Virus record (IMG/VR): IMGVR_UViG_3300038679_000357
Span: 64,001 to 128,000 of that record
DNA from: a virus
Lineage: Duplodnaviria > Caudoviricetes
DNA length: 64,000 bases
Strand: one strand, 5' to 3'
Positions 35,262 through 63,100 of the stretch are shown here, one piece after another. The position numbers were made by a program, and so were the translations under genes. The notes beneath the pieces were generated by a model. It saw only the letters and a program-made list of their open reading frames with translations, was not told the DNA's origin and did no database searches. Position 1 is the first letter of the stretch. Each line of letters starts with the position of its first letter.

Positions 35262-35879
35262 TTAGTCCTCCATTGACTTTGACAACTTGTCGTAATACGC
35301 CTGCTTGTCTTTTTCATACCGTTCCTGATCTCCGCGAAACATATGGTGGTGAATGCATACCGGAATCCTGCCAATTCCGCCAACACCAGACAATTCGATG
35401 GATTGTACAACGCCTTCGTGTACTCGACCAGAAAAGAAGATTTGCTCCATCCGCTTAAACATTCTCGTCTGCATATCTGGATAGAACGGAGAAGTAAAAT
35501 ATGGGGAGTCATGATCATGGGATGGATAATGGTTCTTCCGGATCATCTGATAAGCCACTACGCCAGACTCATCAGCCATATCCATAGCCCTTCTTATAGC
35601 ATCTGTCTTTTCGCCCTCTAAGTGTTCGTCGGCGTCAAGCATCAAGATCCAAGACCTATTGCATTTGGCGATTAGGAAATTTCTAGCTGCTGAAAAATCA
35701 TCAATCCACTTGAAGTCGTATATCTCGGCACCCATTCTCTCGCAAATTTGCTTCGTGGAATCTGTAGATCCAGTATCCACTACGATCAGTTCATCGACCA
35801 CCCTACATACGGAAAGTATGCTGCGTTCGATATATTTTTCTTCATTCTTGAGTATATAAGCCAATGATATTCCACTCAT
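35262..35879 (-). CDS. Glycosyltransferase family 2 (GT-A)
   Basis: ISLAYILKNEEKYI, VVDTGSTDST, WIDDFSAARN, LMLDADE, FSGRVHE. Confidence 0.92.
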   Translation of the reverse strand: MSGISLAYILKNEEKYIERSILSVCRVVDELIVVDTGSTDSTKQICERMGAEIYDFKWIDDFSAARNFLIAKCNRSWILMLDADEHLEGEKTDAIRRAMDMADESGVVAYQMIRKNHYPSHDHDSPYFTSPFYPDMQTRMFKRMEQIFFSGRVHEGVVQSIELSGVGGIGRIPVCIHHHMFRGDQERYEKDKQAYYDKLSKSMED

Positions 35880-37396
35880 TGCAGAAGTCCTACAACTCTA
35901 TTGACAGCGCTTTTCCAAGTATATCTATCAAGAACCTCTTTACGAAGACGATTAGCCCGTTCCGCGACAACTTCATTTCCAGATACGACCATCTTCATGT
36001 GCGCAGATGCCTGCTCTACCTGCTCCATTCCAACTCGCCATAACTTCTGACCTTGATAAAAATACGAAATTGCAGACAATTCCTGTGGGCAATCCTCAGT
36101 TCCAGTACACTCTACCACAAACGAATTATCACGCCTAAGATACTCCGACATACCTGAATGAAGGCATGATATTACAGGCAATCCACGGGCAGCAGCCTCA
36201 ATCTGCGTTAAACTAAACCCCTCTCCTCTCGAAAGGTGAACGTAACAATCACAGGAGTCATATAACGATGGCATATCATCGATAGGAATGACGTTGTTAC
36301 ACAGCAATACTTGCGGAAGATCAGTTTTTCTATCCAAGTAGCGATCGAGAGTACCCTTAACAGTGTCAATGGAATACTGCGTCGAAATCACGAGACATAC
36401 ATCGTCTTCTTCATGAAATGACCTTACGAACGATTTAATGATAGCGTCGTATCCTTTTCTTAAATTCCACTGAATCACCGTCAAAAACTTAAATTTACCA
36501 ATACCATCAGTTGGTGGGCGACCATAAACACTTTTACATGTCGATAGATCATAGGATCTTTTTGATGACGAATATAATTTTTCATCAATCCCCAAGGGGA
36601 CTACTTTAATTGGTTTTCTAACACCTCCATTCCGAAATAATTCAGCGTTAGCTACAGACGGAACCCATACCTCATCACTATATGTATTGCAATAACGAGA
36701 AAAATCACCATGCAGCGTCGATGTCTCCATCATTGTAAAAAATATTGATTTTCCGCCATGGCGTCCATGCGGCATTGGAGTAAATGCATAAACTTTCGGA
36801 TATCGACTATCATGTGGGCGTAATATAGATAGCGAGCGAAGAAGTTTTTCCGTTTTCTTATCAACCTGCGCTACAGTAGGGTAAATATCTGGTATTGGAA
36901 CAAAACCACGACAAAAAAGACGTGACACAATCTCGCGGTTCATATTGGCGTATCCACCTGCATCAAGAAAAGAGCCCCACCATCCAACTGGTTTAGCAGA
37001 AGAAAAAAAGCGTCCATCGCGCATTTCTTCTAAGGTAGAAGCGTCAATCTGCCTGATGCTAGGAACCATCTCCTCAAACAAACGATGAAAATTACCATCA
37101 ACTCGAAACTTTGCTTGCCCCATTCTTTTTTGCCGAATAATATTACGAGATTTATCAACTTCACTTTTCGGCAATAAAAACAGGCGACCATCAGTAGATT
37201 CAGTTCCTATTGGAATATCATCCTCAAATATAATTTTATAGCCTGGATGAGCTTCAGGAAAATCAGCAGTAATGGAAGAAATTGATACCCCAGGATACAT
37301 CAGAGAAACGTCAGTAGTCGAAAAAACAGTCCCTCTTGCATTATCGTTGGAAACAGCTAATATCCGCAAGGAATCAATTTCATATACGACGAACAT
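35876..37396 (-). CDS. Glycosyltransferase family 4 (GT-B) with N-terminal extension
   Basis: GGYANMNR, TMMETS, DEVWVPS, VVPLGID, NLRKGYD, HLSRGEGFSLTQIEAAARGLPVI. Confidence 0.9.
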   Translation of the reverse strand: MFVVYEIDSLRILAVSNDNARGTVFSTTDVSLMYPGVSISSITADFPEAHPGYKIIFEDDIPIGTESTDGRLFLLPKSEVDKSRNIIRQKRMGQAKFRVDGNFHRLFEEMVPSIRQIDASTLEEMRDGRFFSSAKPVGWWGSFLDAGGYANMNREIVSRLFCRGFVPIPDIYPTVAQVDKKTEKLLRSLSILRPHDSRYPKVYAFTPMPHGRHGGKSIFFTMMETSTLHGDFSRYCNTYSDEVWVPSVANAELFRNGGVRKPIKVVPLGIDEKLYSSSKRSYDLSTCKSVYGRPPTDGIGKFKFLTVIQWNLRKGYDAIIKSFVRSFHEEDDVCLVISTQYSIDTVKGTLDRYLDRKTDLPQVLLCNNVIPIDDMPSLYDSCDCYVHLSRGEGFSLTQIEAAARGLPVISCLHSGMSEYLRRDNSFVVECTGTEDCPQELSAISYFYQGQKLWRVGMEQVEQASAHMKMVVSGNEVVAERANRLRKEVLDRYTWKSAVNRVVGLLQ

Positions 37397-37404
37397 CTAT
37401 CCAC

Positions 37405-40400
37405 CTATTTGTATGTGGATACGGAAGCCTTTCGGATAATGGAGACGGTTCCTCCGTCCACGGAAACGTTATCCTCGCTTCCCGCTCTCTCTTCTATAAT
37501 ATACACCGCGTTCAAGTCTCCCTTCATCGAATATTCTGCAACGGCATCTCCATACACAGTCGTAAATACAATGTAATCACCAACATGAAACCTCCCAGAC
37601 ATCTTTGTAGACAAAGAAATTGAGGATATTTCACGGAAGGATCTATTACGTATTGTAATCATATTTCCGTTAGTTGTATACCATAAGTCTACCTTAGCTC
37701 TAATTACCCCAGAATGTTCGAATGCGCTTCCGGCATCAAAGGAATACATGGAAGAATAAGTTGAATCAAGCCTGTGAATTATGTATGAAGATCCATCCAG
37801 CACACAAACATACAATGAATCATCCATGTGATGGAATGATGTTGGCGTTCCAGACACCCCTAAAACAACATTTCTTTCGATCAAAGTAAGATTTTCCCGC
37901 AATGTTGAGATAAAGATCCCAGAAGAAGAGTAGCCTAGAACATAAATAACGGTATTATGGACGGTTTGATCGACGAGAACGTCTTCCGCTGTGCCAATCA
38001 AATTATTATAAACCACAGATTGCTTTGCAAGAGTTTTTGATGGCTCCATGCCCAATTCTGAAAAATCAGTTTCCAAAGCCGAATAAACTGGTCTTCTGTC
38101 ATTATCATACATGTATGATCGGTCTACGGGACGATACATTGTTCCAATATAATCCAGAGACGCCGATGAGGGACCTTTGTTCACGATATCTACTGCGATA
38201 CGGAATAACGGTCGCATAGATAGCGTAACGGTAAATACGTCGGACAAAGGTTGCGCCTGTCCAAATACGAACGTTCCAGAATTACTGTCATAAGTGTATT
38301 CTCGATCTGAAACAATACTGCCGTATTTATCAGATTCCGTCACCCGGTACATTTCTACAACGTAATCCTGAGACCAACCGCCATACGCGGTGATATAGGT
38401 CGCTGCATCTTTCCTTACGAGCAATTCATTAACTCTACTTAGAACGATGCCACCATAGCCATCCTTCATTGCTGGTTGCTGATCTGACCAATACCATTCC
38501 CGTCCAACGTCGTCTGAATGTTTCACTCCATATGATACAGATGATGTAACTGGAACATTTCCATGGTGAGAAAAGATAATCTCGCCAACGTATCCATCCT
38601 TCCCATCATTTACTGGTATAGGCTGGAACATCAAAGTATAACGACGTGGTTCGTAATATTCGTACGCGGCAGAAACAAATGATGGCGACTCGAACGTATC
38701 TGGATCTCCACGGAAAGAAACGCGATACTCCATATACCTATTCACCATTCCGTATGATGACAAATCAAAATCTGTTCCAACTCCAATATCAATCCATTCT
38801 CCGAAATTCACCCCATCAGAACTAAAGCGGATTGAAAAGGTCAACCCCGAAACCCCAGGTGTCGTAACCATAAACGAAAGACGATCAAACAACTTTTCCT
38901 CACCAAGATCAATGATATTTGAATACCACCCAGTGACTAAATCAAAAGAGGGAGAATTAACAATAGAATCAACAACATATCCTGGAATAGAAACTGCATC
39001 CTCCACGTCTGAGACTTCCACTGGAAATCCGCCAAGAGAAGATGTAAATTTACGTACAACAAGATCATCATACGGTTCAGTGCGTTCAAGTTTCACAAAA
39101 ACCAATTCAACTGGATCTTCTGCATCTACCGATTTCAACTCAGACACAGCTTGATCATATGATAAATCTGAGTTGGATTCACCTCCGTCAGAAACAACAA
39201 CAACAACTTTCTTTGACGATGATAAATCCTGAGAAAAAGTGACCATTCTGCGAGCTGCTAATGCCAACGCATCATTCAACCTACTTGGTCCGATTTCAGA
39301 GAAGCTTTCAAGAACCTTATTGAAAATCAGCTCGTCAGTCTCTGGTTTAACGATCAATGATGGCGACGAAACAGAAGGGAACCAATGCATATCGCTTGTT
39401 ACAAGTGATTTATCTATGGCTTTCAATTCTTCCGGAAGACCTGGAATGAATGCTTCAGTCTTCAACACGGCTATAGTGCGAGGAGCATTATCATTACCGA
39501 CGACAACAATCCCATTATCATCTTTCTCTGTTTTAGATTCAATATCGTTATACTCATAAAAGCCAAAGTCTGCAAAAATACGAGTTCCATCCTCTACCGG
39601 TATATCGCCACCAGAAGTTCTAATGTAAGCATGAAATAGCATTGTATATCCTGGATCATATCCATGCATTCTGGCAGAAAATCCTGAAACAATCTTCCCG
39701 TCAACATATTGTGAAGTTGTCGGAATAATCTCTAATACATATCCCGAATCTCCTCCGGTGGTAGCAACTCCAGGGTAGCTAAATGCATAGTTATCCAACG
39801 ACCTGGATATACGAGAACCATCAGGTAAAGTTTTTCCATCGTCGTAATTAGCTTGAGCCTTGACTGCAAAAGCAACCGTTTTATTGGAAATTGGACCAAT
39901 ACCGATCACGGCAACCGACTTTACTATATGTGAATGAAGATTTGACACCCCGCCAGAAAGATCATATACCTCTTCAGACATCGGTGAAGTGGCATAAATA
40001 TTAACGGAATGAACGTGGTCCGGTATAGAGACGCCTTTTGAGTAGGTTACTGTACTTGTGGTAACTCCCTTTCCATTATCATCCACCGACATTTCATGAT
40101 AATGATCAAAATCAAATGAAGTTCGAAGATAATGCGTAGCAGCCTCATCAAAATCAAGAGAACATACAGTCCTATCCTCAAATCGTGAAAACTCAACGCC
40201 TTCCTTCGTTATCTTAACTGATCCAACGTCAAAAGAAACCATCGGTAAAGGATTATCGGAACGACCAACAATAAAGGTATCATGCCAAGTGAGTTCAGCT
40301 ACTGCAACATAACGACTTACCCCATCTCGCTTTAATGGATGGCTATAGGTATCATATCCTGAAGACTTGGGAGACTCTCCATTCGGCTGTTTTCGCCAAT

Positions 40401-43400
40401 CATTCTGCTGATACTCAGACTTATCTACTGGCTCAATATACACAGTAACGCCAAATGGCTCTACAAGATTGACTCTCGGTTTAGGTATTTTTGCCTGACC
40501 GCCACTTATTGTTTCAGTCAAGAACGATACGGTGTCGCTCTCTATTCCTATTCCAGACAAACCATATTTGCGAGATTTAGTGAATAAAGAAATAAATGCA
40601 CATTCCGGAGAATTACACGGATTTGGATCGTCTGGATCTGATTCACGATATGGCGGACGACCGATAAACATGTTAGAGTATAAGCGGTTGCTAACCCAAC
40701 CATAGGGAACGTCAGTATCGTGCTCAACTGGACCTTCAGAAGGCTCTCTACTTGACCATTTTGGCAAGCGTGTACCAACAGTCAATCCAGAACCACTATA
40801 AACCACGCCCATTGCAGACTGAATCAAGTCATCAGCAACTGTGTCAATATAAGGGAAATCTCTAAAAGATGACGCGGGAAGGTCTCCATTTATCGTAACA
40901 TAATCTATTCCGTCTGCCCATATCCTTTTCTGTCCGTGATAAACAGAGGATGGATTTGTATTGTAGCCAGAAGCGTAAAAATAGAAGTTCCCGCCAGACT
41001 GAGCTTGTTCACGCATCCATTCTACTTGACCTTCTTTCTTGGCGGTGAAGCCACGATATGTGCAAATAGCAGTTATCCCCTCAAACTCCCCCCTACCATT
41101 ATCTTCTAATGCGGCAAGACCGGTTGGCGCAGGTATCGGCTCATGAGGACCGAGAAGAACACCGTCAGCCACGCCTGACTCAGTTTGACTGACGGAAGGG
41201 GACATTTGCGTGCTTGTTGCCTCAAAATTAACCATAGTGCCATCAGAAACTGGCTCCACAGCCTTCCACGATACGTAAGCGCCTATATTATGCCTCGTTT
41301 CACCATCCGCCACGGATGGACCCATACCAGACATAGTTATAACAACTGGATTCCTATAATAAATTTTCTGCTTATTAACGACCTTAGATATACCATCATC
41401 CATTTCGAAAGATGCGTGGATATCAAGCAATGCAACTCTATTGAGAGGAGGTAGAGTAATTGTTGCAATTCCAGAAACAACTTTAACGGTATACTGCACA
41501 ACGTCAAGAAGATCATTGGCGAGAAGTGACTGTTCAGTAGAAATAGTGTACGGATCATCGTCATTAACTGTGCTAAAAACATTCTCTCCACCACCCATTG
41601 CCTCATTATCTCCGCACCCATCCAAGTCTGGAAGATCGTCATCTGCAGCTAATCTAGTATCTATTGTTCTTCGCGCATCATAAATTGCTACTCTCAATAC
41701 ACCATTTGCCGGGAAGCCCTTGTCTGTAATATTGTATGTAATGTTTATGTCATATGGATCTGTGGCGTAAGTCCCAGGAACAATTTGATCGTAAGTTGAT
41801 ACAGCTCCATCTTCATCGACTGATTGACACTGCTGAAAAACTGTTGTTCTATCCACGGCATTGGTGATATATATCGGACAGGCGAAATAAATATCAGTAC
41901 CCTTAACAAGGATAACTGCATTCCGATTACCAGAATCATCAAACATTGTAACCACTGGATTGACAGTATATTTTTTAGCGAGATACCTTACAGTTGATAA
42001 ACTTCCTATTTGCTGCTCTGTCAATTCAGTTGCGAATGACTTCATTTGAGTTGATGCGTACCCACCAATCGATTCCACCTTATGATCCATGGTGAAATCA
42101 GGAATGCCGTCATAATATACTGGCTCTTCAACAACCTCGTTTGACGTCGAAGATGACTGTACATAATCGGAGTCATCCACTCCCTCTTTCATCTCCCCCT
42201 TTTCCATATCTTCAATCGCCTTGGCGCGAACTTGATCTCGTTCACTTGGGTTGAACATCGACTTAGCCAAAGCATCTCGAACTGATGAATTTTCAAACCT
42301 ATCTTCTGTTATCGGACAGACTCTAACGGCGGACCATCCATTTTTGGTCATAATCTCTACTGACGAACGCTTCACTCTTGTTGGATCTGTATTGTAAAAA
42401 TCAGGATTTGCAGATGGATCTACCTGGGGTGGATCTAATGGGTCCAACAACGAAGGATCGTGAAGTGCGTGCGTGAAAATCGGTGTGATATCAACAAGGT
42501 TTACCGTCATCGGAAGTTTTTCCGACACATTGACATCTACTTTAGCGCCAATTTCCGTAGATGGAGTTACAATAGCTGCATGTTTTGACATCAAAAAAGA
42601 CGACGGCATCGCATCCGCGATTCCGACCACTCCAGATTGATCGATAGATGATACCGTTGTTGCATGATAGGCTACAGTCTCTCCTTCAGCAACTTTGTAG
42701 GCGTTCCGGTCATCATCAATAATATCAATGGAATCACCACGCTTTATAGATGAAGCATCCTGCGGAGATATATATATGATTGTTGCCCCAGATGAAGCAT
42801 CTGAAATTAAATAAATTGTTTTCTGTTTGGCTGCATCGCTATTCATCTCTTCAGTTGGCTCTTTATCAACATAAAACTCTACTATTGTTCCGTCTGGAAG
42901 CGGCTCTCCTTCTGCATCAACTGTATCAATTTCCAGGAGTGCGGTTTCATCCATGAAGTACAATTGATAGAATTCCCACGATGACATCGGCTTAAACACC
43001 CACTCTATATGAGCGCCATTTGCAGTCTGAACAAAAAATACAATATCAGATCCATTAAGTGGATCGACTACATAAAATTCAAACGCATCAGTTTTATCCC
43101 ATCCAGTAAGTGATTGAGCAGTATACCTTTCGATCATCGCCCCATTAGAAAGTGATGTCCCGATATATACTTCAGGATCAATTACTATTGCAATCGAAGA
43201 AACATAAGTGATATTTTTCGGCTGCTCAATAGAAGAAATAGAAGATATTCGAACTTGATCATCAACAATAAACGTATGCTCACCAACAACTATAGAGGTA
43301 TCACCTGGCTGAATATCTGATTCTGGTCGAGAAACAGTATAATCGTTAGAAAATCCGTAAACATACCTAATAGCATCCCTTCCAGATGAAGTTGAAACGG

Positions 43401-44589
43401 ACAAACACGCTTCTCCATTTGGTCCTTCGTCTGCAGTAGATATTGACGGAGAGTCAGATTGCCATACTGGTTTCCACCCATCATCTACTGTTTGAGTGCG
43501 AAATTCCGACCAACCGGTATCAAATCCATACACAAGATACTTTGATGAGGATAAACTCCTGAATCCGTACGCGACAACTCCTGTTCCCATATGAGCACGG
43601 ACGTCTCCTGATAACGGATTCCCAAAGGCATCCACTCCTGTTAATGCAGTGTAGTCGTCAACACTTACTGTTACTCCTCTCAACTTACCACTCATAGATA
43701 ATGATAACGGAGATAATGGTCTAGCTCCAAATTGTACAAAATCATACGTTACGTTACGAGGAAACTTAGACTTGAAAGACGACATAATTCCATTGACAAT
43801 CTCTTTTCTAAGAGAGAAGCGATCATTCCACCCCATACTTCCAGACGAATCAACTACATAAGATAAATGCAAATCCATTGGAATTAATCTAATTGAGTCA
43901 ACGGATGGTGATGGATAATATGGACCAGGACCAGAAACGATCATCGTATTGTAAAATGTTCCAGAAGACAAAACGCTTTTTCCAGATTGACTGCCAGACG
44001 AAAGTATTGCTGGCGGGGTAACAATCATGTGTCCAGGCATTGGTCCAATTATTTCGGAATAAGCGTCAAAATCTGAAGCAGCACGAACAGTGCGATGAGC
44101 CCCTAAAATATCCTCCCATGTAGAGCCTCCGTCAGAACTCATGGAGCAACCGTTATCTCCGTCAACTATAGCATAAGCCCAAGCGGCATAGTTGTTTTCA
44201 TCACCACCAGACTGCCACACAGTAAGACACAATCCATTTTCAGGAGTAGTCATCTCTGGTATGGATAAGTTAAATTTATACCAGTCATTTTGCTGTATCG
44301 CTGAAGATAAAATAGAAGCAGAAGATAAAATTGAACCAGTTGGATGTCCGTTTTCGTCAGACTCCCGCAATTCCGCCCACATCGTAAAAGAAAGATCATT
44401 ATCTGATCTAGCTCTGATGAGATATATGGCTACCCACCCGACAGATATCAACTTCTGCACAAATGACAATTTCTGAGATAAAATTCTTGGAGTAGATGGG
44501 TTAAAATTGACAGCAGAGTGACTTGTCGCAACGAATTTTGTTGCGGACCAGCCCGATACACCGTATTTTCCTAAAACTTCGTTGGACAT
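37405..44589 (-). CDS. Giant virion-like adhesin: interrupted vWA domain, Big_1/Ig-like repeats, HxH module
   Basis: 2394 aa; YVVDSSGSM MIDAS near aa 245; GPSRLNDAL and VVVVSDG near aa 1770-1800; DAEGEPLPDGTIVEF and PVSDGTMVNF Ig-like motifs. Confidence 0.7.
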   Translation of the reverse strand: MSNEVLGKYGVSGWSATKFVATSHSAVNFNPSTPRILSQKLSFVQKLISVGWVAIYLIRARSDNDLSFTMWAELRESDENGHPTGSILSSASILSSAIQQNDWYKFNLSIPEMTTPENGLCLTVWQSGGDENNYAAWAYAIVDGDNGCSMSSDGGSTWEDILGAHRTVRAASDFDAYSEIIGPMPGHMIVTPPAILSSGSQSGKSVLSSGTFYNTMIVSGPGPYYPSPSVDSIRLIPMDLHLSYVVDSSGSMGWNDRFSLRKEIVNGIMSSFKSKFPRNVTYDFVQFGARPLSPLSLSMSGKLRGVTVSVDDYTALTGVDAFGNPLSGDVRAHMGTGVVAYGFRSLSSSKYLVYGFDTGWSEFRTQTVDDGWKPVWQSDSPSISTADEGPNGEACLSVSTSSGRDAIRYVYGFSNDYTVSRPESDIQPGDTSIVVGEHTFIVDDQVRISSISSIEQPKNITYVSSIAIVIDPEVYIGTSLSNGAMIERYTAQSLTGWDKTDAFEFYVVDPLNGSDIVFFVQTANGAHIEWVFKPMSSWEFYQLYFMDETALLEIDTVDAEGEPLPDGTIVEFYVDKEPTEEMNSDAAKQKTIYLISDASSGATIIYISPQDASSIKRGDSIDIIDDDRNAYKVAEGETVAYHATTVSSIDQSGVVGIADAMPSSFLMSKHAAIVTPSTEIGAKVDVNVSEKLPMTVNLVDITPIFTHALHDPSLLDPLDPPQVDPSANPDFYNTDPTRVKRSSVEIMTKNGWSAVRVCPITEDRFENSSVRDALAKSMFNPSERDQVRAKAIEDMEKGEMKEGVDDSDYVQSSSTSNEVVEEPVYYDGIPDFTMDHKVESIGGYASTQMKSFATELTEQQIGSLSTVRYLAKKYTVNPVVTMFDDSGNRNAVILVKGTDIYFACPIYITNAVDRTTVFQQCQSVDEDGAVSTYDQIVPGTYATDPYDINITYNITDKGFPANGVLRVAIYDARRTIDTRLAADDDLPDLDGCGDNEAMGGGENVFSTVNDDDPYTISTEQSLLANDLLDVVQYTVKVVSGIATITLPPLNRVALLDIHASFEMDDGISKVVNKQKIYYRNPVVITMSGMGPSVADGETRHNIGAYVSWKAVEPVSDGTMVNFEATSTQMSPSVSQTESGVADGVLLGPHEPIPAPTGLAALEDNGRGEFEGITAICTYRGFTAKKEGQVEWMREQAQSGGNFYFYASGYNTNPSSVYHGQKRIWADGIDYVTINGDLPASSFRDFPYIDTVADDLIQSAMGVVYSGSGLTVGTRLPKWSSREPSEGPVEHDTDVPYGWVSNRLYSNMFIGRPPYRESDPDDPNPCNSPECAFISLFTKSRKYGLSGIGIESDTVSFLTETISGGQAKIPKPRVNLVEPFGVTVYIEPVDKSEYQQNDWRKQPNGESPKSSGYDTYSHPLKRDGVSRYVAVAELTWHDTFIVGRSDNPLPMVSFDVGSVKITKEGVEFSRFEDRTVCSLDFDEAATHYLRTSFDFDHYHEMSVDDNGKGVTTSTVTYSKGVSIPDHVHSVNIYATSPMSEEVYDLSGGVSNLHSHIVKSVAVIGIGPISNKTVAFAVKAQANYDDGKTLPDGSRISRSLDNYAFSYPGVATTGGDSGYVLEIIPTTSQYVDGKIVSGFSARMHGYDPGYTMLFHAYIRTSGGDIPVEDGTRIFADFGFYEYNDIESKTEKDDNGIVVVGNDNAPRTIAVLKTEAFIPGLPEELKAIDKSLVTSDMHWFPSVSSPSLIVKPETDELIFNKVLESFSEIGPSRLNDALALAARRMVTFSQDLSSSKKVVVVVSDGGESNSDLSYDQAVSELKSVDAEDPVELVFVKLERTEPYDDLVVRKFTSSLGGFPVEVSDVEDAVSIPGYVVDSIVNSPSFDLVTGWYSNIIDLGEEKLFDRLSFMVTTPGVSGLTFSIRFSSDGVNFGEWIDIGVGTDFDLSSYGMVNRYMEYRVSFRGDPDTFESPSFVSAAYEYYEPRRYTLMFQPIPVNDGKDGYVGEIIFSHHGNVPVTSSVSYGVKHSDDVGREWYWSDQQPAMKDGYGGIVLSRVNELLVRKDAATYITAYGGWSQDYVVEMYRVTESDKYGSIVSDREYTYDSNSGTFVFGQAQPLSDVFTVTLSMRPLFRIAVDIVNKGPSSASLDYIGTMYRPVDRSYMYDNDRRPVYSALETDFSELGMEPSKTLAKQSVVYNNLIGTAEDVLVDQTVHNTVIYVLGYSSSGIFISTLRENLTLIERNVVLGVSGTPTSFHHMDDSLYVCVLDGSSYIIHRLDSTYSSMYSFDAGSAFEHSGVIRAKVDLWYTTNGNMITIRNRSFREISSISLSTKMSGRFHVGDYIVFTTVYGDAVAEYSMKGDLNAVYIIEERAGSEDNVSVDGGTVSIIRKASVSTYK

Positions 44590-44612
44590 TAGATCATTCT
44601 TTCCGATAGAAT

Positions 44613-44622
44613 ATTGTACAAC
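44613..44622 (-). promoter_or_regulatory. Putative class II promoter -10 variant (GTTGTACAAT)
   Basis: Intergenic, 23 nt upstream of ATG 44589. Confidence 0.4.
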
Positions 44623-45161
44623 TACGCCGGAAGTAGTGAAATTTCAGCGACAACATCTCCAATATGGGTAGTCGATCCACTACTGGTTGTTACGCCAAAT
44701 TGAAACTCTGTACCAGCGGGATAAGCTAGATTACCAAGATCAAAGTTAGAAACGTTATTTACAGCAGAAACAGATAGCGTAACCCCAGAAAACATAACAT
44801 TCGGATCAGAAGATGTACCAAGTCTTACTACCGGAGAAGCCAATAGTGGATCAGATACTGTTTTATGGCGTACAAATAATTTTGATAGGATTGCTACGGC
44901 TCCGGATGGAACTATATAAATCGACGTCTGCGCCGCAACTGTCATATCAACAGATAGTATGTTTTGACTAGAAACATTTCCATGATACGGAAGTAAATTC
45001 CATTCAGTTGAATCATCCCCAATCTTAATTCGATAAAACATCGGTCCAAAGCCATTGTCCTCAATACCAACTTCTCCAAACAAGAGAATAGGATTTGTCG
45101 AGGTCCACTGTGCCGACGTTCCACGCCTTACTTTAATTCTTGCAATTTTGGTCTCTGACAC
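44622..45161 (-). CDS. Small fibre-associated protein with Mtd/hyaluronidase-type N-terminal domain
   Basis: RIKVRRGTSAQWTSTNPILLFGEVGIE...KIGDDSTEWNLLPY. Confidence 0.8.
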   Translation of the reverse strand: MSETKIARIKVRRGTSAQWTSTNPILLFGEVGIEDNGFGPMFYRIKIGDDSTEWNLLPYHGNVSSQNILSVDMTVAAQTSIYIVPSGAVAILSKLFVRHKTVSDPLLASPVVRLGTSSDPNVMFSGVTLSVSAVNNVSNFDLGNLAYPAGTEFQFGVTTSSGSTTHIGDVVAEISLLPA

Positions 45162-45175
45162 GTACGCACCATATG

Positions 45176-52297: not shown

Positions 52298-52318
52298 AAA
52301 TAGAGGCGGATGACCTAC

Positions 52319-52764: not shown

Positions 52765-52789
52765 ACTTTATCTCCTACTAACTTTTTTG

Positions 52790-55700
52790 TTAAGCCAATA
52801 TCGACCCGCCAGTAGCTGTCAACTCATTAGCTGTAGTTCCAGTTGGTTGAGTGCTACTCTTTCCTATTGTAGATCCTTGCGTTGCGTATAGTCCATAAGT
52901 TGGATTCGTTCCAGTTGATGGATTTGATCCGGAAACCACCACGCAAGTATCTGCATATATTCCGCGATAAAGATTTGATACATAGTTGTTATTTATATTT
53001 GAATTACATCTATTGGCTCGGATACCAACATTCGTATTAGTCTTTGCAGCAGCAAGAATATAGTTTGCAGACACGGTTGCAACCATACCTAGCGACATAT
53101 AAACTCCAGAACAATCATTTACATTTGGGACTCTGATTTTTAAATTTCGAACAATAACAAAGCAGGCACATCGTTCAAACCAAAGCACGCCATTGGCTGC
53201 TCCAGCCCATGTATTAGCATCGATATATACCGCTTGAGTTGTATACGCGGCTGTTCCTTCAGTAGTATCACCCTGAAAGTATAAAAACCCTCCACTAAAA
53301 TCTCTGACAGCCACATTGGAATTCCAAGTGTGAGTACCATTAGCAAACTGGAATGTAAGTGAATAACCATCTAATTCATTTGGGCAATTTGATACTATAG
53401 TTTGAACTTGAGCAGCAGTCATAGATGTTGGTATATTAATCGTAACTCCGGCTCTCAATCTAATGAAACCACCATTTGTTCGTAAGAACGGGGATACAGA
53501 CCAGGACGGAACATCTCCTCCGCTAATTGACAATAATCCGGCTGTAGTTACTGAAAGCCCATAATTACATGCGGTACCAGTCCCTCTATTATCGTTGGAA
53601 TTTGCTAACGACCTATCGATATGGATTGCACGGTCCATATTGCTTAAATAGTTTCGTGATAGATCACCTGGTCCGACTGCAAAAAATCTTATTCCAAAAT
53701 TGGTGTTTGTTTTACCAGAACCTAAGATATAATTATCAGCAACAGTAATGTAACCTGAATGATTCGCAGCATATACCCCATTAGTGTTCGCTACATCTGG
53801 AACAGTTATCTTTAAATTTTTAAGATTAATTTGAACACTATTCCTAAGAAGTTGAATAACACCTGCTGTGCCACCAGTTCCACCCCACGATCCAGCATTC
53901 AAATGAACAGCTTGAGATGTGTATGGTCCACTTCCTTCTGAAATATTTCCTTGAATATTTAATGTTCCATTTGAAAAATTAATAAACTGTAATTGACCGT
54001 TCAATGTATATGCGCCATCGGAAAATTGAAAACTTACCGTAGATGACTTTAAGTCTCTTTGCTGTAAATTAATTGTATTCTGCATTATAGCAGCGGTCAT
54101 AGAGTTGTCAAAAGTAATAGTGTGGTTTGGCACGTTGTATATAGTCCCAGATCGACCGTCATACCCAACTGCAAACGGACAATAATAACCGTTTAAAAAC
54201 GTAGTCACATCGGTTATGCTAATTATTCCGCCATTAATAACATAATGACCATACAATGGCGCAGTTCCTGTACTTGAATTTGCGTTGCACCTTAATTGAG
54301 CACATGAACTAACGATACCATTTTTAACATTACTGACGTAATTCTCCGTGCAAGACCCCTTAGAGAACATCCAATACAATCCAGAACATTCAGTTGTATT
54401 ACCAACTCCAAGAGAATAGCAAAATGACACTTCACAATATAAAGTTCCATAAATAAATGCACCCATACAATTCAAAAGATCTGGATGCGTAAACTTCATC
54501 CACTTAACATAGCATAGGCAAGCGCAATTATTGACGTTTATATTTCTTACGCCCGCGCTCAGTCCAGACCCATTGAGATGAACCGCTTGATTGGTATGCA
54601 TTGTTGTCGCTTCGGAAGAATTACCCTGGATTATTAATGATCCACCATAAAAATCATCATAATTATGCCCAGAAGTAAGTGTATATGTTCCGTCGGCATA
54701 CTGGAATGTTAAAGTGTAAGAATTTAGATTTTTTGGCTGAGAGTTAATGATATCTTGAATCTGAGTATCAGACATTGAGTTGTCAAAATTTACAGTAATA
54801 TCTTCCGTCAACTTAACATCACCAACAACCGATCCAGAAAGCTCCTCAGTTACCTGAAGAAATGTTTTTGACACCCCTCCATATATCTTTGTTCCACCAG
54901 ATCTCCATCCTACAACATGTATGGTGTCTCCATAAACCAAGTCCAATGTTTTATCCAAGTTAACAAAAGAATTTCCAACAGATATGACAGCGCCAGATTC
55001 AATAACTGCGGTTGAAGTATTTTTGTATACGATCCCATACCCAGATGTCGTATCAAACATCAATTGCGCAACAATCCTATATTTTGCATCTTTCGGGCAA
55101 GTCCATATTCCGGTTGTATTATTATAAGCGGAGTCTATATCAATAGGCTCCGAGTCAAATATCACAGTTGTTTCAGTTTCATTGGAGATAGTTTGATCAG
55201 TTGACCGATAACCATCGACACGCAATATTTCACGACTGAAAGATCCGCCAGAATTCACCCCGTAGCCACGACAAATTAACTTACCAGAAGTGAAATCGGA
55301 AGAACTAAGAGAATATATCGTAACCGAAGCAATCGCGCTAGTGCTCTTCCAGAACCCACCAACCTTATAATTAACGACACCAGCATTTTCCGAGGTCGAA
55401 GATTCATAATCCTGACCATCACCAACATACGCTTTATAGTAAGACGTTTCCTTGAATGATGGAACTATTAACTTCAATGCCCCGCCATAGTTCGCTGATG
55501 CCGTCGACCCAGGGATAGCTCCTATAACCCCATACGACAAGCCAGCTCCATCATTGGATAAACCACCTTCAGTATTGTCAGCGGTGGCATACCGACCAAC
55601 TGAATCATAATTACTGCCAGTATCTCCATTGAATCTGATACCAATATAATCCTGATCAGCAGAAACGTCAGATCTTCCATAAATTAATATTTCTAAATCA

Positions 55701-56080
55701 TCTCCAGAGATATTATTCACAGGAATTGTTATCGAATTTACACCCGTTAAATCAGCTTCAAATTTCTGCTGAAAATTGAATCCAGACTCAGCAATCTGAG
55801 TCAATGCAGATTTTCGTATAAGCCCATCGCTAGTTTTTGAAGAATCGTAGTAATTATCTATGATGGACGGAATTTCAGTATCAACCCTCGACATTGCCGC
55901 TTGAAGATCGGCGTCAGACGCTAATATCCCAGTGAATGACGTGTTATCCACTGATATATCTTCGGCATTAGCGTTTGTCTCATCAAGAACCTTATTCCCA
56001 TCACGAGTCAATCCATCAACGTCGGACGATAATCCCTTACCGTTGACGTTGGCATCAAGAAAACCTACATGTTTTACCAT
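52790..56080 (-). CDS. Tail fibre / receptor-binding protein: C1q-like domain plus three beta-helix repeats
   Basis: IRFNGDTGSNY..WKSTSAIASVTI module, QTISNETETTVIFD..NTTGIWTCPKDAKY C1q-like, three (FD/IP)xSM..Q..I..P..L....TFQ(F/Y)ADG modules with parallel-beta-helix Asn/Gly/Cys ladders. Confidence 0.75.
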   Translation of the reverse strand: MVKHVGFLDANVNGKGLSSDVDGLTRDGNKVLDETNANAEDISVDNTSFTGILASDADLQAAMSRVDTEIPSIIDNYYDSSKTSDGLIRKSALTQIAESGFNFQQKFEADLTGVNSITIPVNNISGDDLEILIYGRSDVSADQDYIGIRFNGDTGSNYDSVGRYATADNTEGGLSNDGAGLSYGVIGAIPGSTASANYGGALKLIVPSFKETSYYKAYVGDGQDYESSTSENAGVVNYKVGGFWKSTSAIASVTIYSLSSSDFTSGKLICRGYGVNSGGSFSREILRVDGYRSTDQTISNETETTVIFDSEPIDIDSAYNNTTGIWTCPKDAKYRIVAQLMFDTTSGYGIVYKNTSTAVIESGAVISVGNSFVNLDKTLDLVYGDTIHVVGWRSGGTKIYGGVSKTFLQVTEELSGSVVGDVKLTEDITVNFDNSMSDTQIQDIINSQPKNLNSYTLTFQYADGTYTLTSGHNYDDFYGGSLIIQGNSSEATTMHTNQAVHLNGSGLSAGVRNINVNNCACLCYVKWMKFTHPDLLNCMGAFIYGTLYCEVSFCYSLGVGNTTECSGLYWMFSKGSCTENYVSNVKNGIVSSCAQLRCNANSSTGTAPLYGHYVINGGIISITDVTTFLNGYYCPFAVGYDGRSGTIYNVPNHTITFDNSMTAAIMQNTINLQQRDLKSSTVSFQFSDGAYTLNGQLQFINFSNGTLNIQGNISEGSGPYTSQAVHLNAGSWGGTGGTAGVIQLLRNSVQINLKNLKITVPDVANTNGVYAANHSGYITVADNYILGSGKTNTNFGIRFFAVGPGDLSRNYLSNMDRAIHIDRSLANSNDNRGTGTACNYGLSVTTAGLLSISGGDVPSWSVSPFLRTNGGFIRLRAGVTINIPTSMTAAQVQTIVSNCPNELDGYSLTFQFANGTHTWNSNVAVRDFSGGFLYFQGDTTEGTAAYTTQAVYIDANTWAGAANGVLWFERCACFVIVRNLKIRVPNVNDCSGVYMSLGMVATVSANYILAAAKTNTNVGIRANRCNSNINNNYVSNLYRGIYADTCVVVSGSNPSTGTNPTYGLYATQGSTIGKSSTQPTGTTANELTATGGSILA

Positions 56081-56111
56081 TGACTAACCCCGCATAAAAT
56101 CTAATAGAATC

Positions 56112-56137
56112 ATTCAAAAAACTATATTAAAAATCCT
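56112..56137 (-). promoter_or_regulatory. Putative SigH-type promoter (AGGA-N18-GAAT)
   Basis: Minus strand AGGAtttttaatatagttttttGAAT, 31 nt upstream of ATG 56080. Confidence 0.58.
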
Positions 56138-57681: not shown

Positions 57682-57714
57682 TACCTACCTATCCAATGAT
57701 TCTACAACCATTCA

Positions 57715-59091
57715 TTAGGGAGTAGAACTGCTGGAACTGCTAGAGCTACTTGAGCTACTAGAAGGAACTGCTGTGCCAGAATACAACACAGTCAATTTAT
57801 CTCCTTCCTCAAGCAATCCATCAAGACCAAGAGATGTCCACTTCAGCCTATCAGTAACTACACCGTCCATAGTATAGTCATCGCTGTAATATTGTGCAGG
57901 AGCACCTTTGACAAGAAGTATGACATCCTCAGCGGCAGACGGAACAATCGACAAGGTAATGTATTTATTAGAGATGTCGGTTGCCGTAAGAACAAACTGC
58001 TCAACAACCGTCCCAGTAAGTCCAGCGACCGCACTGTCGATGTAGTCCTTGTTTGCCGCATCTGTCGCAGCCAACGGAGTTCCAACCTTGATAGTACCAC
58101 TGGCTGTAGCAAAGTCATAAGTCTCAGATAGATCCAACTCAGTTGCGCCAACTCCGTCAGCCTTAATTCTGAGGCGACCACCGTTACCAGTATCACCTTC
58201 GATTGAAGTGTCATCTACTTTAACCGCAACGCCATTTGCAGAAACATTAATAGCGGTAGCGAGATTTGCACCACCAGTCGAATCAGCAACAACAGATACG
58301 ACATAGCTGGTAATATCAATACCATTTCCTTCGGTATACGGAACAGTCTGACTGAACTGAGTAAATACAATCGGATCGGTATCAACAGATATATCACCGG
58401 CTGCTACTACAACAAAACCACGACCAGCGTTGAAAGTGCCCTGCTCAACAAACGTAAAGTTTCCACCAGATACCTCACTGGACGGAGAACCATCAAAGTC
58501 AGTTGCACGGGTCAAAACGGTAGCGCCAACACCACCGACTGTCGTAACAGTATAAATACCATTATGAACGTTTGATCCGTCTACACCATTTTTGATCAAA
58601 ACGCGCATCGTCGTTGCATCAAGATCAACTCCGTCAATCGTGGTAAGACCAACAGCAGGAGCGGTAAGAGTTTTTCCTATGCCACTTCCAGAAGGTGTCC
58701 ATGCACCAAGGTCAGATACCGTTGCTACCCTAACCGACTTTTTAGGATCAAGACCTGCCGCAATACCATCAGCATACGCCTTGTTGACAAAATCACTTGC
58801 ATTAGTTGGAACAACTGAAGATTGCGGCAATGTTGTGGAGAATGTCCACAACTGGGTGATGGTCTCAGTTTGGTCCAATCTGGCAATATAAGCGCTATCA
58901 GCCAGTTTCGAAAAACTTATGCTTCCCGCCAACTGCCCGTCAGTAACGCCAAGTAGCTTAATATTCAAACCATCATTAGTCCTTTCGAGAGAGCCACCAG
59001 TCGAAACAACTTTTACTCGCAGCGCGCCAGACCCATTATCTTCCAACGACTGTGAATCTTTGTTGATCCATTTAGAGTTCATCAACGCCAT
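57715..59091 (-). CDS. Tail-fibre-like protein ending in poly-Ser
   Basis: DFVNKAYADGIAAGLDPKKSVRVAT, RVLIKNG..NGIYTV, LTRATDFD, DAANKDYID fibre motifs; 13 terminal Ser. Confidence 0.75.
   Translation of the reverse strand: MALMNSKWINKDSQSLEDNGSGALRVKVVSTGGSLERTNDGLNIKLLGVTDGQLAGSISFSKLADSAYIARLDQTETITQLWTFSTTLPQSSVVPTNASDFVNKAYADGIAAGLDPKKSVRVATVSDLGAWTPSGSGIGKTLTAPAVGLTTIDGVDLDATTMRVLIKNGVDGSNVHNGIYTVTTVGGVGATVLTRATDFDGSPSSEVSGGNFTFVEQGTFNAGRGFVVVAAGDISVDTDPIVFTQFSQTVPYTEGNGIDITSYVVSVVADSTGGANLATAINVSANGVAVKVDDTSIEGDTGNGGRLRIKADGVGATELDLSETYDFATASGTIKVGTPLAATDAANKDYIDSAVAGLTGTVVEQFVLTATDISNKYITLSIVPSAAEDVILLVKGAPAQYYSDDYTMDGVVTDRLKWTSLGLDGLLEEGDKLTVLYSGTAVPSSSSSSSSSSSSSTP
57724..57762 (-). 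repeat. Poly-serine coding tract (13 Ser)
   Basis: TCT AGT AGC TCA AGT AGC TCT AGC AGT TCC AGC AGT TCT, then TP-stop. Confidence 0.95.
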
Positions 59092-59116
59092 AATTTACCT
59101 CATCCTTGTTTTATTT

Positions 59117-60124
59117 TCAGAATACATACCTAACAATCATGGTATCTCCTTCAGATAGCACTCCGTCTAACGTTAACCCATTCCAAGAAATTCTTGGAGG
59201 AGATAACAAAACAGTGAAATCATTTGAAGAAACCAAAGAAAATGACCCTGCCACCGCAACTTCAACCAATGATAACGGGTTTGGAGTATTCGAAAGTTCA
59301 ACATATTTGTTTGATATATCCGTGGCTGTAAGAGTAAAAGTTTGAGCTACATGAACATGGTTTGGTATAACCACACCACCATTTACCACAAGATCAGATA
59401 TGGCACCTGTAATTGTCATGCCGCCTTCGTAATATATAACTCCGCTACCAACAGTTATGGCATAATCTGGAAGAGTGCTGTAATCATCGTTTTCATAGCA
59501 CTGTATCTTTGCTCCATCAGAAGACATGATTCCGTAGGTTGTTCCAGAAAATACGCAAAAACTTACCGAAGCATCAACTCCTAATAAAAACAAACCTATA
59601 TTTCCATTTAACTTTGAAGAGGCATGAAAATAACATCCTGACACATACACTGGAGTGCTTGAACCAGACGCGGTAACGCAAGAATAATACATACTATCTT
59701 CAGCTATAATGGATAAGTTATATATCCTTGTCACACACCTGATGTCAGAAATATCCAATCCAACTGGTAAAATCACAGATTGGTTAGTATGTCTATCGCT
59801 CTTGTCCTCCAGCATATTACCGACGATTTCAACTGTGCCGTTCATAAAGCCAGAGAAAGTAAGGCGATCCACCATTGACGAATACGTTCCATCAGCAAAT
59901 TGAAACGTCAATGTGTGTCCACCGAGGTCAACGAGTATGGCGTCAATCAAAGCTTGAGCGGCAGCAGACGTCATTGACGAATTAAAGTTCACGACTGTAT
60001 CAGACGTAAGAGAAAATAGACCAATAATGCCTGATGGAGTGGTAAAACCACCATTGGCGAACACCTCCGTACTTGCTGTCGGAGTTATCGGAAGATAATC
60101 ATTTGGAAATATTTTACTAGCCAT
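59117..60124 (-). CDS. Fibre-associated protein with one beta-helix module
   Basis: NFNSSMTSAAAQ..DLGGHTLTFQFADGTY module shared with 52790-56080; C-terminal module shared with 57715-59091. Confidence 0.7.
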   Translation of the reverse strand: MASKIFPNDYLPITPTASTEVFANGGFTTPSGIIGLFSLTSDTVVNFNSSMTSAAAQALIDAILVDLGGHTLTFQFADGTYSSMVDRLTFSGFMNGTVEIVGNMLEDKSDRHTNQSVILPVGLDISDIRCVTRIYNLSIIAEDSMYYSCVTASGSSTPVYVSGCYFHASSKLNGNIGLFLLGVDASVSFCVFSGTTYGIMSSDGAKIQCYENDDYSTLPDYAITVGSGVIYYEGGMTITGAISDLVVNGGVVIPNHVHVAQTFTLTATDISNKYVELSNTPNPLSLVEVAVAGSFSLVSSNDFTVLLSPPRISWNGLTLDGVLSEGDTMIVRYVF

Positions 60125-60134
60125 TCTTCACCCA

Positions 60135-63100
60135 TCAATATTCCGTATAGATATTATTCCCATTCCAGTCAAGAATATCATTTCCATCCCAATCCTGTAA
60201 GAAAAATAATCCAGCATTCTCAGACGAACTGCTGCTTGAACTGCTACTTGATGAGCTATTACTTAAACTACTACTTGATGAACTATTGCTTGAGCTACTA
60301 CTTGAACAACTACTCGAAAAACTTGATGAACTTGATGAACTACAGCTTGACGAAGAACTAAATGACTGTGACGAGCTGCAACTTGACGAACTGCAACTTG
60401 ACGATGAACTAAAAGATTGAGAGCTACTACTCAATGAGCTTGACGAACTACTACTACTCGATGAGCTTGCAGATGATGACGATGGAGCAATAATCCTCAT
60501 GATTGCCCGAGACTGAAGCGAAGCTACATCTGCCACATTGTCTTGATCGCTCCATGACGGGTTCGTCCTCAACCAATCTGTCGTCCATCCATGAACACTT
60601 CCTCCGCTATGGATAACTCCCTCGTTGCGGATATTTTCTTCATCAACCCATTTAGGACGTTTAACATCGGAAACAACAGGAACAGCAAAGGCATCTACGT
60701 TGAATGGTTTTTCAATAAAACGCGATCCTCTAAGATAAAATGGATATTCAGACCCGCTTCCAGCAACTGGAGCAACTGACGAAGCAGATACTGTCAACAC
60801 GCTCCTGGAATACATCATCGTTCTAGTAAATGAATAATAACTAAACGACGCCTTTTTTGCCGGACCAGAATAAACTACGCCAACATCGCCGGTAAACCCA
60901 TCGAGAACCTGTCCATCAACGTCCAATGAAAAATTAACGTCAATCGGCATGTATGGATAATGAGAATCAAGATCATAAACAACATGTATCGTTTTTGCTG
61001 GACGGTCATCATAAATTCGAACGCCTGAAATAGAAATTCCAAGCCACGAATCAGAAACAGAAAATCTAGCTGTATGCTCGGAATAATTACCATCAGAATC
61101 GAATAATCCAAGCCTATACCTAATCACAGATGATGGTGATAAAATTGACGAAGATGGGAATTTATATTCCCTAGCATTTCCTGACTCATCGACAAATGTC
61201 GTCCAGGTCCCGCCGTCAACAGATGCTGACATTGACACAATAAATGGAGAAGGAGATGGAGATGAAAATTCAACAATAAAATCAGTATCACCAGATCGTG
61301 GCGGTCTGGTTTTTCCATCATCTCCATAAAAAACTATTTCATCAACGGTAAATAACGGAGCATCAAGATACAATGTTATTTCAGCTCCAGAAGCGACAGA
61401 AACAGACGAAAAAGAAACAGTCCCGATAGACGGAAGATTGTACGCTCCGGCGTCATTTCCGCTAGAATCAAAAAATAGCACAAGAGGTGTATCGGTAATA
61501 AATTGTGACTGACTTGGCATTACTCCAGGATAATCGCTCAAAACCCCTGAAGACTGAAACGCAGCAAGCATTCCATACATAGGAGATTGTGGGGCGGAAT
61601 ACTGTTGACTGCGACCAACAACAACGGTCCCAGTTTTTCCAGCATCACTACCGAACGAAGATGGAGAAAGACCAAACGCAGGAGTAACTGGAGAATCTCC
61701 TGGACACATTCCAGTAGTTAAAGTAGATAGTCCGTAGGCAGCCTCAAATACAAGAATTTCTTTCTGCTCTGTCGTTAAGGGGATCGGCGTACCGCCAACT
61801 ACATTGTAAAAATTAGGATATACCGTCCATAAATCAAAAAATTCAGCGGGAGTTTGGAGATAATCATCAAGAGAGAAATCATAAGATGATACTGGAGAAA
61901 GCGAAGATACACACTCTTTTAGAACCTGACGCCACCACATCGACACAATTAACACATGCGATTTATGTGTCCTCGTAACCCCATTACACACCTCGCTGGT
62001 AATAAACTCCAGCGAATACGCACCATGAACGCCGTAATCAATACTTTTTAAATAGCTATCCTGGGTTGCCGCAGGAACATTGAATGAAATAGCGCCTTCA
62101 TTAGTTAAATTACCAAGTGAATATCTTATGCCAGAGAATAAATCGCGAACAAATAATTCAGTAGAAGATGAAGATCCCACCGCCGTTATCTTACCATTAT
62201 CTATGACGTATCCATAACTCAATGATGGAATATCACTGTGAATGACGATTGATTGTCCAGTCATGGAAACAAGAGACTGAAGTCCAGATCCCTCCACCCA
62301 CGTATCGCGGAAACCAACAATTGGAATGTCCCTTCCAATCATCCCCCTTGGAGGACGCCTACCGTAAGATGAAATAAATGAGGAACCGTAAATACGCGAG
62401 TCCGATTCAGCAGACTTTATTAACTCTTTATCATTAACAATAGATGCAATCAATGGATGGCGCGGCGGAACTGGAGCGAACGACAAATTAGAAAATGAAT
62501 GATGCAATCCAGAAATCGACGATCCAAGAGACCGCCTCAAAGTTACATTGGATAGCCTATTGGAAGAAAAAACAACCTCTCTCATGCCATCCATTACTGC
62601 CGCAATCATTCCATCGGCATATTCGGTAGCCCATATCACATTAGAAAATAGCAAGGTATATGGAGAAGATGTACCCTTTTCTGAAGCATACTGTATGCCT
62701 TCGATCGACAATACTGGAAAATCATTTGGAAATTGATAAACCTTCACGGAATCGGTATCGGCAACGCATACTCTCGTAGAATTCGTAAATGTAGCTGATT
62801 TTGGAGAAGATAAGGAGAATAACTGAGTTTCATAAACAATCGTTCCAACGGATGGTTTTATTGCTCCGTCTATTGGATCTAGCCACTCTATGATATTTAC
62901 TTGATTAATAGCGGAAAGAGTAATACACAAGTTTCCAGTTGAAGGATCATAATCACAATGAACTGGTTCCACGCCAGGATCGTAAGAATACATCTCCGTT
63001 CCGTCAGACAAAATATCGGCAACAACTGTGTATGGAACAGTGTTATCGTAATCAGTCAGGAATATTCTAACCAATCCAGCCACCATGCGAGCGACTGCAT

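Follow-up and report, generated by a model that had tools for sequence, protein, structure and literature searches.

The glycosyltransferase pair and its poly-Ser neighbours

We analysed a 64,000-nucleotide (nt) stretch of viral DNA (the window), which corresponds to positions 64001-128000 of the 255,142-bp IMG/VR virus record IMGVR_UViG_3300038679_000357 (completeness estimate 97%). The record is a jumbo phage, and the sequencing runs that hold it are labelled as groundwater metagenomes. At the centre of the analysis stand two adjacent glycosyltransferase (GT) genes, one of family GT4 and one of family GT2, and a set of fibre-region proteins with poly-Ser tracts. All genes of the interval 35262-60482 lie on the - strand. 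In the order of transcription, the run encodes proteins of 1139, 335, 458, 519, 1096, 140, 2349, 179 and 2394 amino acids (aa), followed by GT4 (506 aa; 35876-37396), GT2 (205 aa; 35262-35879) and a 632-aa metallophosphoesterase (33363-35261). The pair is tightly packed at the end of the fibre genes: 8 nt separate the TAG stop of the 2394-aa gene from the ATG of GT4, GT4 and GT2 overlap by ATGA, and the TAA stop of GT2 abuts the GTG start of the metallophosphoesterase gene (0 nt). The first-pass annotation of this DNA had reported the 8-nt spacing, the overlap and the common orientation, all of which proved exact. GT genes adjoin or lie within structural genes also in phage virion glycosylation systems of the mycobacteriophage type. 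Judged from the genes alone, a system for O- and possibly S-glycosylation of the virion is plausible here.

Three upstream fibre-region proteins carry Ser tracts, as first described. The 1139-aa protein (60135-63554) contains a Ser(/Cys) tract of ~90 aa (aa 1024-1113; 60216-60485), which is followed by a tail of 26 aa. In the 2349-aa protein (45176-52225), the tract spans aa 2280-2311 (45293-45388) and precedes an acidic tail of 38 aa (45179-45292). The 458-aa protein (57715-59091) ends in a run of 13 Ser (S13; 57724-57762), after which only TP and the stop codon follow. This last protein has its final module (aa 362-437) in common with the fibre-like 335-aa protein (59117-60124; 43% identity, 2e-13), which has no Ser tail; the 458-aa protein adds a 21-aa extension, SGTAVP-S13-TP, and nothing beyond.

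The tracts use all six Ser codons, intermixed. AGY makes up 44% of the Ser codons in tracts compared to 22% elsewhere in the genome, and adjacent identical Ser codons are fewer than in shuffled sequences (42 versus 52.5, P about 0.05). At aa 1043 and again at aa 1060, the 1139-aa protein has the same 12-aa peptide, SSSQSFSSSSSC; the two copies differ in 8 of their 12 codons, every change being synonymous. Thus, the mixed codon usage and the synonymously diverged duplication noted earlier were both borne out. Four tRNA-Ser genes of the phage jointly cover all six Ser codons. Since the phage carries a near-complete set of 46 tRNA genes, this does not amount to specific support. Note that Leu and Phe dominate among the non-Ser residues inside the tracts of this phage, and that SSSSSC units recur. 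An (I/V)(L/F)DGG motif followed by (G)(L/F)P stands directly after Ser tracts, twice in the tail of the 2349-aa protein (45179-45292) and once in a 1470-aa protein encoded elsewhere in the genome (genome 205560-209972); its 5-residue core is found in only three other proteins of the genome. The motif may be a small docking or binding peptide borne on a Ser stalk.

The upstream proteins had been called virion-like. This holds for the 458-aa protein, a tail-fibre homologue (tail-fibre PHROGs, 8e-19), and for the 179-aa protein (44622-45161), which has a tail-fibre/Mtd-type N-terminal domain. The giant proteins can be called virion-like by context only: the 2394-aa protein (37405-44589) has weak VWA-like matches, and the 2349-aa protein has Asp-box (BNR-like) motifs and a body that is conserved in relatives. 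The fibre-like 1096-aa protein (52790-56080) has a weak C1q-like match, and the 1139-aa protein has weak propeller-like look-alikes, all of which score <0.9 in the ESM Atlas and serve as leads only. By eye, we counted three copies of a ~60-aa module with the motif T(F/L)QF(A/S)DG(T/A)YT in the 1096-aa protein and a single copy in the 335-aa protein. A further observation concerns the downstream border of the run, where a match to AGGA-N17-GAAT lies at 33346-33370 (- strand), in the 54-nt gap after the metallophosphoesterase gene. As a hint, this copy may mark the end of a fibre-GT transcription unit. The AGGA-N17/18-GAAT motif is not enriched in the window (12 matches versus 7.25 expected; 6 of 100 shuffles reach 12).

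Affinities of the two enzymes

GT2 matches PF00535 (1.1e-16; 61.7 bits versus a curated cut-off of 23.3) and a PHROG glycosyltransferase family, and corresponds to a GT-A catalytic domain. Its DADEH sequence, a DxD motif, is invariant in eight orthologues. Among solved sequences, GmaR stands closest (9e-23; ~55% identity over aa 4-106), followed by a ThuS-like enzyme (4e-11) and SunS (5e-10). A profile built from the eight orthologues gave the same three when compared with solved structures (GmaR 4e-25, SunS 1e-17, ThuS 8e-16), the next match reaching only 3e-8. An AlphaFold model with an overall predicted local distance difference test (pLDDT) score of 75, confident in the N-terminal half, was compared by Foldseek, and its six best matches were SunS and ThuS (3e-11 to 6e-10), with a gap to TarS. 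By tblastn against 50,697 phage records, GT2 matched yolJ (SunS) of SPbeta as well as Listeria and Enterococcus contigs. Its top matches in a library of 1.84 billion representatives are multi-domain proteins, and 9 of 10 sampled were fusions of GT2 with tetratricopeptide repeats (TPR). The GT2-TPR fusion of the nearest cellular homologues is the architecture of GmaR.

Sequence and modelled fold thus place GT2 in the GmaR/SunS/ThuS clade, closer than to the GT2 enzymes that act on polysaccharides, teichoic acids or lipid carriers. The characterised members of the clade all act on proteins or peptides in the cytoplasm. An N-terminal domain of ~180 aa in GmaR transfers GlcNAc to flagellin (PMC9638930), and the titles of the PDB entries of SunS and ThuS describe glycosylation of Cys or Ser in glycocin peptides. 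Given this clade and the GT2-TPR fusions among the cellular neighbours of GT2, a protein is the best-supported acceptor. If either enzyme starts a glycan on Ser, GT2 is the likelier of the two.

GT4 matches PF13692 (1.9e-12, 48.1 bits) and PF00534 (3.9e-11, 43.2 bits), clearing the curated Pfam thresholds, and phrog_2170 (2.8e-21). PF20706, 'GT4 in conflict systems', also matches. The model has a pLDDT of 91.8, and all fold matches are GT4 enzymes with the two-Rossmann-domain GT-B fold, the nearest being a chlorovirus GT (3oy2), followed by BshA and PimB'. The protein carries an extra N-terminal domain of ~135 aa and is one of three paralogues in the genome. Against the same 50,697 phage records, tblastn returned GTs of Streptomyces and Rhodococcus phages. 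A scan of IMG/VR with the single sequence gave no match, so that an alignment was needed as query; GT4 homologues are common on very long contigs (236 matches). We also considered a GtfA-like identity for GT4 and rejected it: GtfA was found neither in the sequence search nor among the top 50 fold matches, and the partner enzyme is a GT2 rather than a GtfB-like protein. On sequence and model, GT4 is a generic member of its family. Of the proposal that the locus resembles the glycosylation of streptococcal serine-rich repeat (SRR) proteins, the protein acceptor has therefore survived in the affinities of GT2, but the analogy to GtfA/B has not.

The same results bear on a rather different possibility, namely that the two enzymes act on a non-protein acceptor, such as host envelope glycan intermediates (in receptor change or superinfection exclusion), phage DNA or a small molecule. 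GT4 lends itself to this, as its fold is nearest to enzymes with small-molecule or lipid-linked acceptors (BshA, PimB', MshA) and to the chlorovirus GT, and the match to the conflict-system family PF20706 points the same way. In addition, replication genes and the gene for GDP-mannose 4,6-dehydratase (Gmd) follow on the same strand, and the DNA-glycosylating GTs of phages are diverse (Pyle 2024, as cited in PMC12619734). None of the GTs of the genome has a transmembrane segment and the enzymes are soluble, yet peripheral-membrane GT4 enzymes also do without such a segment. What makes a non-protein acceptor improbable in our view is the protein- and peptide-directed clade of GT2, together with the gene content of the phage. 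The genome has no homologue of thymidylate synthase/hydroxymethylase, which leaves a T4-like route to DNA glycosylation unsupported, and the window open reading frames (ORFs) plus ~30 other genes scanned yielded neither a flippase or polymerase nor a lipid-carrier enzyme.

Tracts and glycosyltransferases in the genome and its relatives

The 255-kb genome encodes at least eight Ser-tract proteins; the five outside the three described above have 422, 300, 540, 1470 and 152 aa. Firm GT genes number at least six: three GT4 paralogues and two GT2 genes, the pair among them, and one GT8. Outside the pair there are also a methyltransferase, weak GT9-like and GT2-like genes, and Gmd. A methyltransferase-GT8-GT9-like block sits between two Ser-tract genes and adjoins another gene with a tail-fibre N-terminal domain. 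No informative solved relatives were found for the GT8 and the second GT2. The GT9-like gene of 562 aa, which lies outside the window, was considered as a bacterial autotransporter heptosyltransferase (TibC/AAH), but this reading was not borne out, with PF01075 reaching only 8e-3, under the cut-off, and no PDB match at E <= 1.

Beyond tracts and GTs, the genome has genes for a primase, a clamp loader, RecD-like and DnaB-like helicases and a split DNA polymerase III alpha, and also for a sigma factor, a ClpB-like ATPase and a large terminase; the - strand carries ~83% of the genes. DNA polymerase III alpha is present as two overlapping ORFs (window 283-2118 and 2115-3335), the first holding the PHP domain and the start of the NTPase domain, the second the remaining NTPase, finger and HhH domains. 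The two ORFs reflect a natural split or else a frameshift, whether programmed or accidental. The sole + strand tRNA of the 46 (genome 18373-18447) has the anticodon CUA, that of an amber suppressor, and is called tRNA-Pyl by ARAGORN. IMG/VR flags the record as a provirus; an integrase or host flank was not seen in the parts examined, with no search aimed at them, and the flag may be an artefact of contig trimming.

At least eight relatives have the GT4-GT2 pair in synteny. Genome-wide tract status rests on two complete genomes, this phage and its closest complete relative, the 235.6-kb IMG/VR record G001; L109-L114, L117, L118 and L136-L137 were analysed as local loci. The run of 2394-aa gene, GT4, GT2 and phosphoesterase is kept in G001, L109, L110/L111, L112, L113, L114 and L136. 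The general arrangement in the clade is a protein of ~2300 aa, one of ~2400-2760 aa, GT4, GT2 and the metallophosphoesterase, which follows the pair in all relatives; a few genes on lie a UvsW-like helicase and DnaB. In most relatives the 2394-aa orthologue directly precedes GT4, while a small ORF stands between the two in L136 and L137. Fibre genes of the 335- and 1096-aa type are missing between the 1139-aa and 2349-aa orthologues in G001 and L124, and these genes therefore represent an inserted cassette.

Ser tracts are also typical of the clade. In G001, the pair comprises the only PF00534 and the only PF00535 gene of the genome, and six proteins have Ser/Cys tracts. The 1139-aa orthologues in G001, L117, L118 and L124 have a tract that starts at aa 1021-1037, in all four with a visible C-terminus, although their bodies are only 27-32% identical to that of this phage. 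Note that a homologous-protein search with the 1139-aa protein returned no match, probably because it was swamped by Ser-rich candidates. Fibre-like neighbour genes in L117, L118 and L121 are extremely Ser-rich, with tracts of up to ~150 aa, and L121 has seven Ser-tract genes in ~10 kb, mostly with C-terminal tracts. Of the 57 non-Ser residues in the tracts of G001, 41 are Cys, in SSSSC units (e.g. genome 103505-105175 and 177810-179471), and so high a share is hardly what chance point mutations in Ser codons would give. The GT4-GT2 pair and the Ser tracts are hallmarks of this clade. The expectation that the two co-occur across genomes gave a mixed result: co-occurrence holds at the level of the clade and for the two complete genomes, but there is no fixed gene-by-gene pairing. 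The first-pass annotation had further suggested a Gmd-derived sugar. As G001 has no Gmd orthologue, Gmd (23445-24464, among the replication genes) lies outside the conserved core, and this suggestion found no support.

The architecture of the tracts raises the question of whether they carry sugars at all. They may be unmodified flexible linkers and tails, perhaps junctions for the shuffling of fibre modules, with the GT pair acting elsewhere. Many tracts do separate tandem homologous modules (three of ~330 aa in h130 and four of ~100 aa in h191 of G001; four in the 2054-aa protein of L118), and several tracts of the 255-kb genome precede Cys-rich domains of 95-136 aa. The 1139-aa orthologues of L117 and L118 have bodies that are 99% identical, whereas their tracts measure 86 and 141 aa, and two fibre genes of L117 correspond to one fused 2054-aa gene in L118 (regions compared: L117 14218-22962 and L118 14218-24188). 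Poly-Ser tracts thus look like hot spots of indels and recombination for fibre modules. Polyserine linkers are moreover documented in bacterial carbohydrate-active enzymes (CAZymes; PMC2386152), and the GT pair persists whether or not the 2349-aa protein has its tract. Nevertheless, we consider unmodified tracts unlikely. Free C-terminal poly-Ser tails are found in the 458-, 1470- and 152-aa proteins and in several genes of relatives, including L121. A terminal tail links nothing, and flexibility alone therefore does not explain it. A linker role is also compatible with glycosylation, and unmodified tracts would leave a conserved, protein-type GT2 without a substrate.

Alternatively, the enzymes may glycosylate virion or other phage proteins at sites off the Ser tracts, for example the 2394-aa protein, a capsid protein or a tail protein. 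The constancy with which the 2394-aa gene precedes GT4, with at most one small ORF between, is in keeping with this possibility, as is the retention of the pair where no tract lies within 10 kb. The natural acceptor sites of GmaR are Ser/Thr residues on folded flagellin, not homopolymer tracts. We nonetheless find off-tract sites rather improbable: both complete genomes with the GT pair are rich in Ser(/Cys) tracts, the clade as a whole keeps the tract in the 1139-aa family, and homopolymeric Ser offers the most obvious dense array of acceptor hydroxyls.

Several findings weigh against glycosylation of the tracts by this pair. On the side of the enzymes, GT2 consists of the GT domain only, its 205 aa including no TPR or other substrate-binding domain. 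The TPR and helical domains of GmaR and SunS are thought to bind their substrates. The alignment of GT2 to GmaR and SunS is limited to the N-terminal half, and the acceptor half of the model is of low confidence. As to gene order, the pair stands next to replication genes within a long run on a single strand, so its location by itself does not mark it as late or structural. On the side of the tracts, many simply join repeated modules, in the manner of bacterial CAZymes, whose linkers need no glycosylation. Only this phage and its nearest relative, L109, have the tract and tail in the 2349-aa protein, and 6 of the 7 visible orthologues in relatives that keep GT4 have no tract: those of G001, L112, L113, L114 and L136 end just before it although GT4 and GT2 are kept, and that of L137 has no tract at its end, with GT4 kept. 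The link between the pair and these three particular tracts, as first drawn, is accordingly not upheld, GT4 being retained in all six tractless cases and GT2 beside it in five of the six.

Co-occurrence has its exceptions as well. L137, a more distant relative, has Ser tracts and GT4 but no GT2 at the GT4 site. Three other huge phages with GT4 homologues gave at best weak GT2 matches. Runs of Ser-type codons are far fewer in those three phages (6-14 per ~480 kb) than in this phage (33) and in G001 (114). These runs were scored with the DNA pattern (WSN)12; because this pattern is noisy, catching other frames and Gly or Asp/Glu repeats, the counts give only a rough measure of density. Since tracts and GTs were seen together in one clade only, their co-occurrence is not phylogenetically independent. 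As a separate observation, the 2394-aa orthologue of L137 opens with ~75 aa of Ser tracts (2898-3130), the tract having moved from a C-terminal to an N-terminal position and onto a different protein.

A proposed route and its precedents

On balance, we give an even chance to a scheme, built on sequence affinities and models, in which GT2 starts the O-glycosylation, and possibly also S-glycosylation, of the tracts and GT4 and further GTs extend the glycan. The fibre proteins would be sugar-modified by the phage itself, in the host cytoplasm and late in infection. GT2, with its catalytic domain of the GmaR/SunS type, would put the first sugar on the Ser hydroxyl, or possibly the Cys thiol, of the poly-Ser(/Cys) tracts. 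The adjacent GT4, probably translationally coupled with GT2, would then extend the glycan, and the two GT4 paralogues, the GT8, the second GT2, the methyltransferase and Gmd may contribute too. The tracts, which would join fibre modules or hang free as C-terminal tails, would become stiff, hydrated, protease-resistant and mucin-like upon glycosylation. We infer the protein acceptor, the position of the acceptor residues in the Ser tracts, the order of the enzymes and the effect on the virion.

A bolder variant, which we regard as unlikely, has GT2 resembling SunS/ThuS to the point of S-glycosylating the Cys residues scattered in the tracts, besides O-glycosylating Ser. If so, S-linked glycans would be described on virions for the first time, and mucin-like fibres would be the product of a two-enzyme module conserved in a clade of jumbo phages from groundwater and sediment. 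To our knowledge, actinobacteriophages are so far the only phages shown to glycosylate their virions with enzymes of their own, which protects the particles from antibodies. Glycosylation of the tracts described here would broaden this in three respects, with fibres and receptor-binding proteins as targets, homopolymeric mucin-like tracts as acceptors, and environmental phages of an unrelated jumbo-phage clade as carriers. A compact catalytic domain of the GmaR/SunS type, at 205 aa and with a simple peptide substrate, would also be easy to work with in vitro and is potentially useful for glyco-engineering. In fibre genes, poly-Ser tracts change in length and mark where modules have been rearranged, which bears on the evolution of host range.

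Several known systems resemble parts of this arrangement. The SRR adhesins of streptococci and staphylococci have long Ser-rich regions that are densely O-glycosylated in the cytoplasm by GT4 enzymes (GtfA/GtfB) and extending GTs. The phage system differs in that its GT4 is not GtfA-like and its tracts are near-pure Ser, not SxSx dipeptide repeats; a GtfB-like partner and an accessory Sec system were not seen in the phage, neither having been specifically searched for. Polyserine linkers join the modules of CAZymes in Saccharophagus degradans, Cellvibrio japonicus and Teredinibacter turnerae (PMC2386152, PMC2699552). Like the tracts in G001, L117 and L118, they are near-homopolymeric Ser between globular modules. 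In contrast to the phage tracts, which also form free tails and contain Cys, they belong to secreted bacterial enzymes with no known dedicated GT.

With regard to the enzymes, GmaR, the flagellin O-GlcNAc transferase of Listeria monocytogenes (PDB 22ao), is the best match of GT2, including the nucleotide-binding and DxD regions. GmaR works in the cytoplasm and O-glycosylates Ser/Thr in the protein of a surface filament, much as proposed for GT2. GmaR differs in its length of 637 aa, with TPR, linker and anti-repressor domains, whereas the phage GT2 is the catalytic domain alone, with an unaligned C-terminal half. SunS and ThuS (PDB 7msn, 7msp, 7msk) are GT2 enzymes that act on peptide Cys, and ThuS also on Ser; SunS (yolJ) is encoded on the SPbeta prophage. 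Unlike the phage enzyme, they have a C-terminal helical peptide-binding domain, and their substrates are short bacteriocin precursors, not structural proteins.

Among viruses, the capsids of chloroviruses and the fibrils of mimivirus are glycosylated by virus-encoded enzymes (PMC4691112). These are again large viruses with their own GTs and sugar-nucleotide enzymes, including Gmd, and the best fold match of GT4 is the chlorovirus enzyme 3oy2. They differ in infecting eukaryotes, in the N-linkage of the chlorovirus glycans and in having no poly-Ser acceptors. In large aquatic phages, four core GT families have been described, with their target left open (PMC12619734). Our literature search brought up no paper that connects poly-Ser tracts with GTs in phages.

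Of all known systems, the virion glycosylation of mycobacteriophages (Che8 gp110, Corndog gp38, Myrna) comes closest in function, and the system proposed here would most likely be a variant of it. These phages are reported to use their own GTs to glycosylate the C-termini of capsid and tail-tube proteins (Freeman 2023, Cell Host Microbe 31:1216, as cited in PMC12363180 and PMC12619734). No mycobacteriophage was among the tblastn matches of GT4 or GT2 in the 50,697 phage records, a direct comparison with Che8 gp110 and Corndog gp38 not having been run. In common with them, on the evidence of its genes, the jumbo phage would have soluble, phage-encoded GTs adjoining structural genes, C-terminal acceptors, and a reaction that takes place in the cytoplasm before assembly. 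Unlike in the mycobacteriophages, the candidate acceptors in this uncultured jumbo phage are fibre proteins, with homopolymeric Ser(/Cys) tracts of up to ~90 aa.

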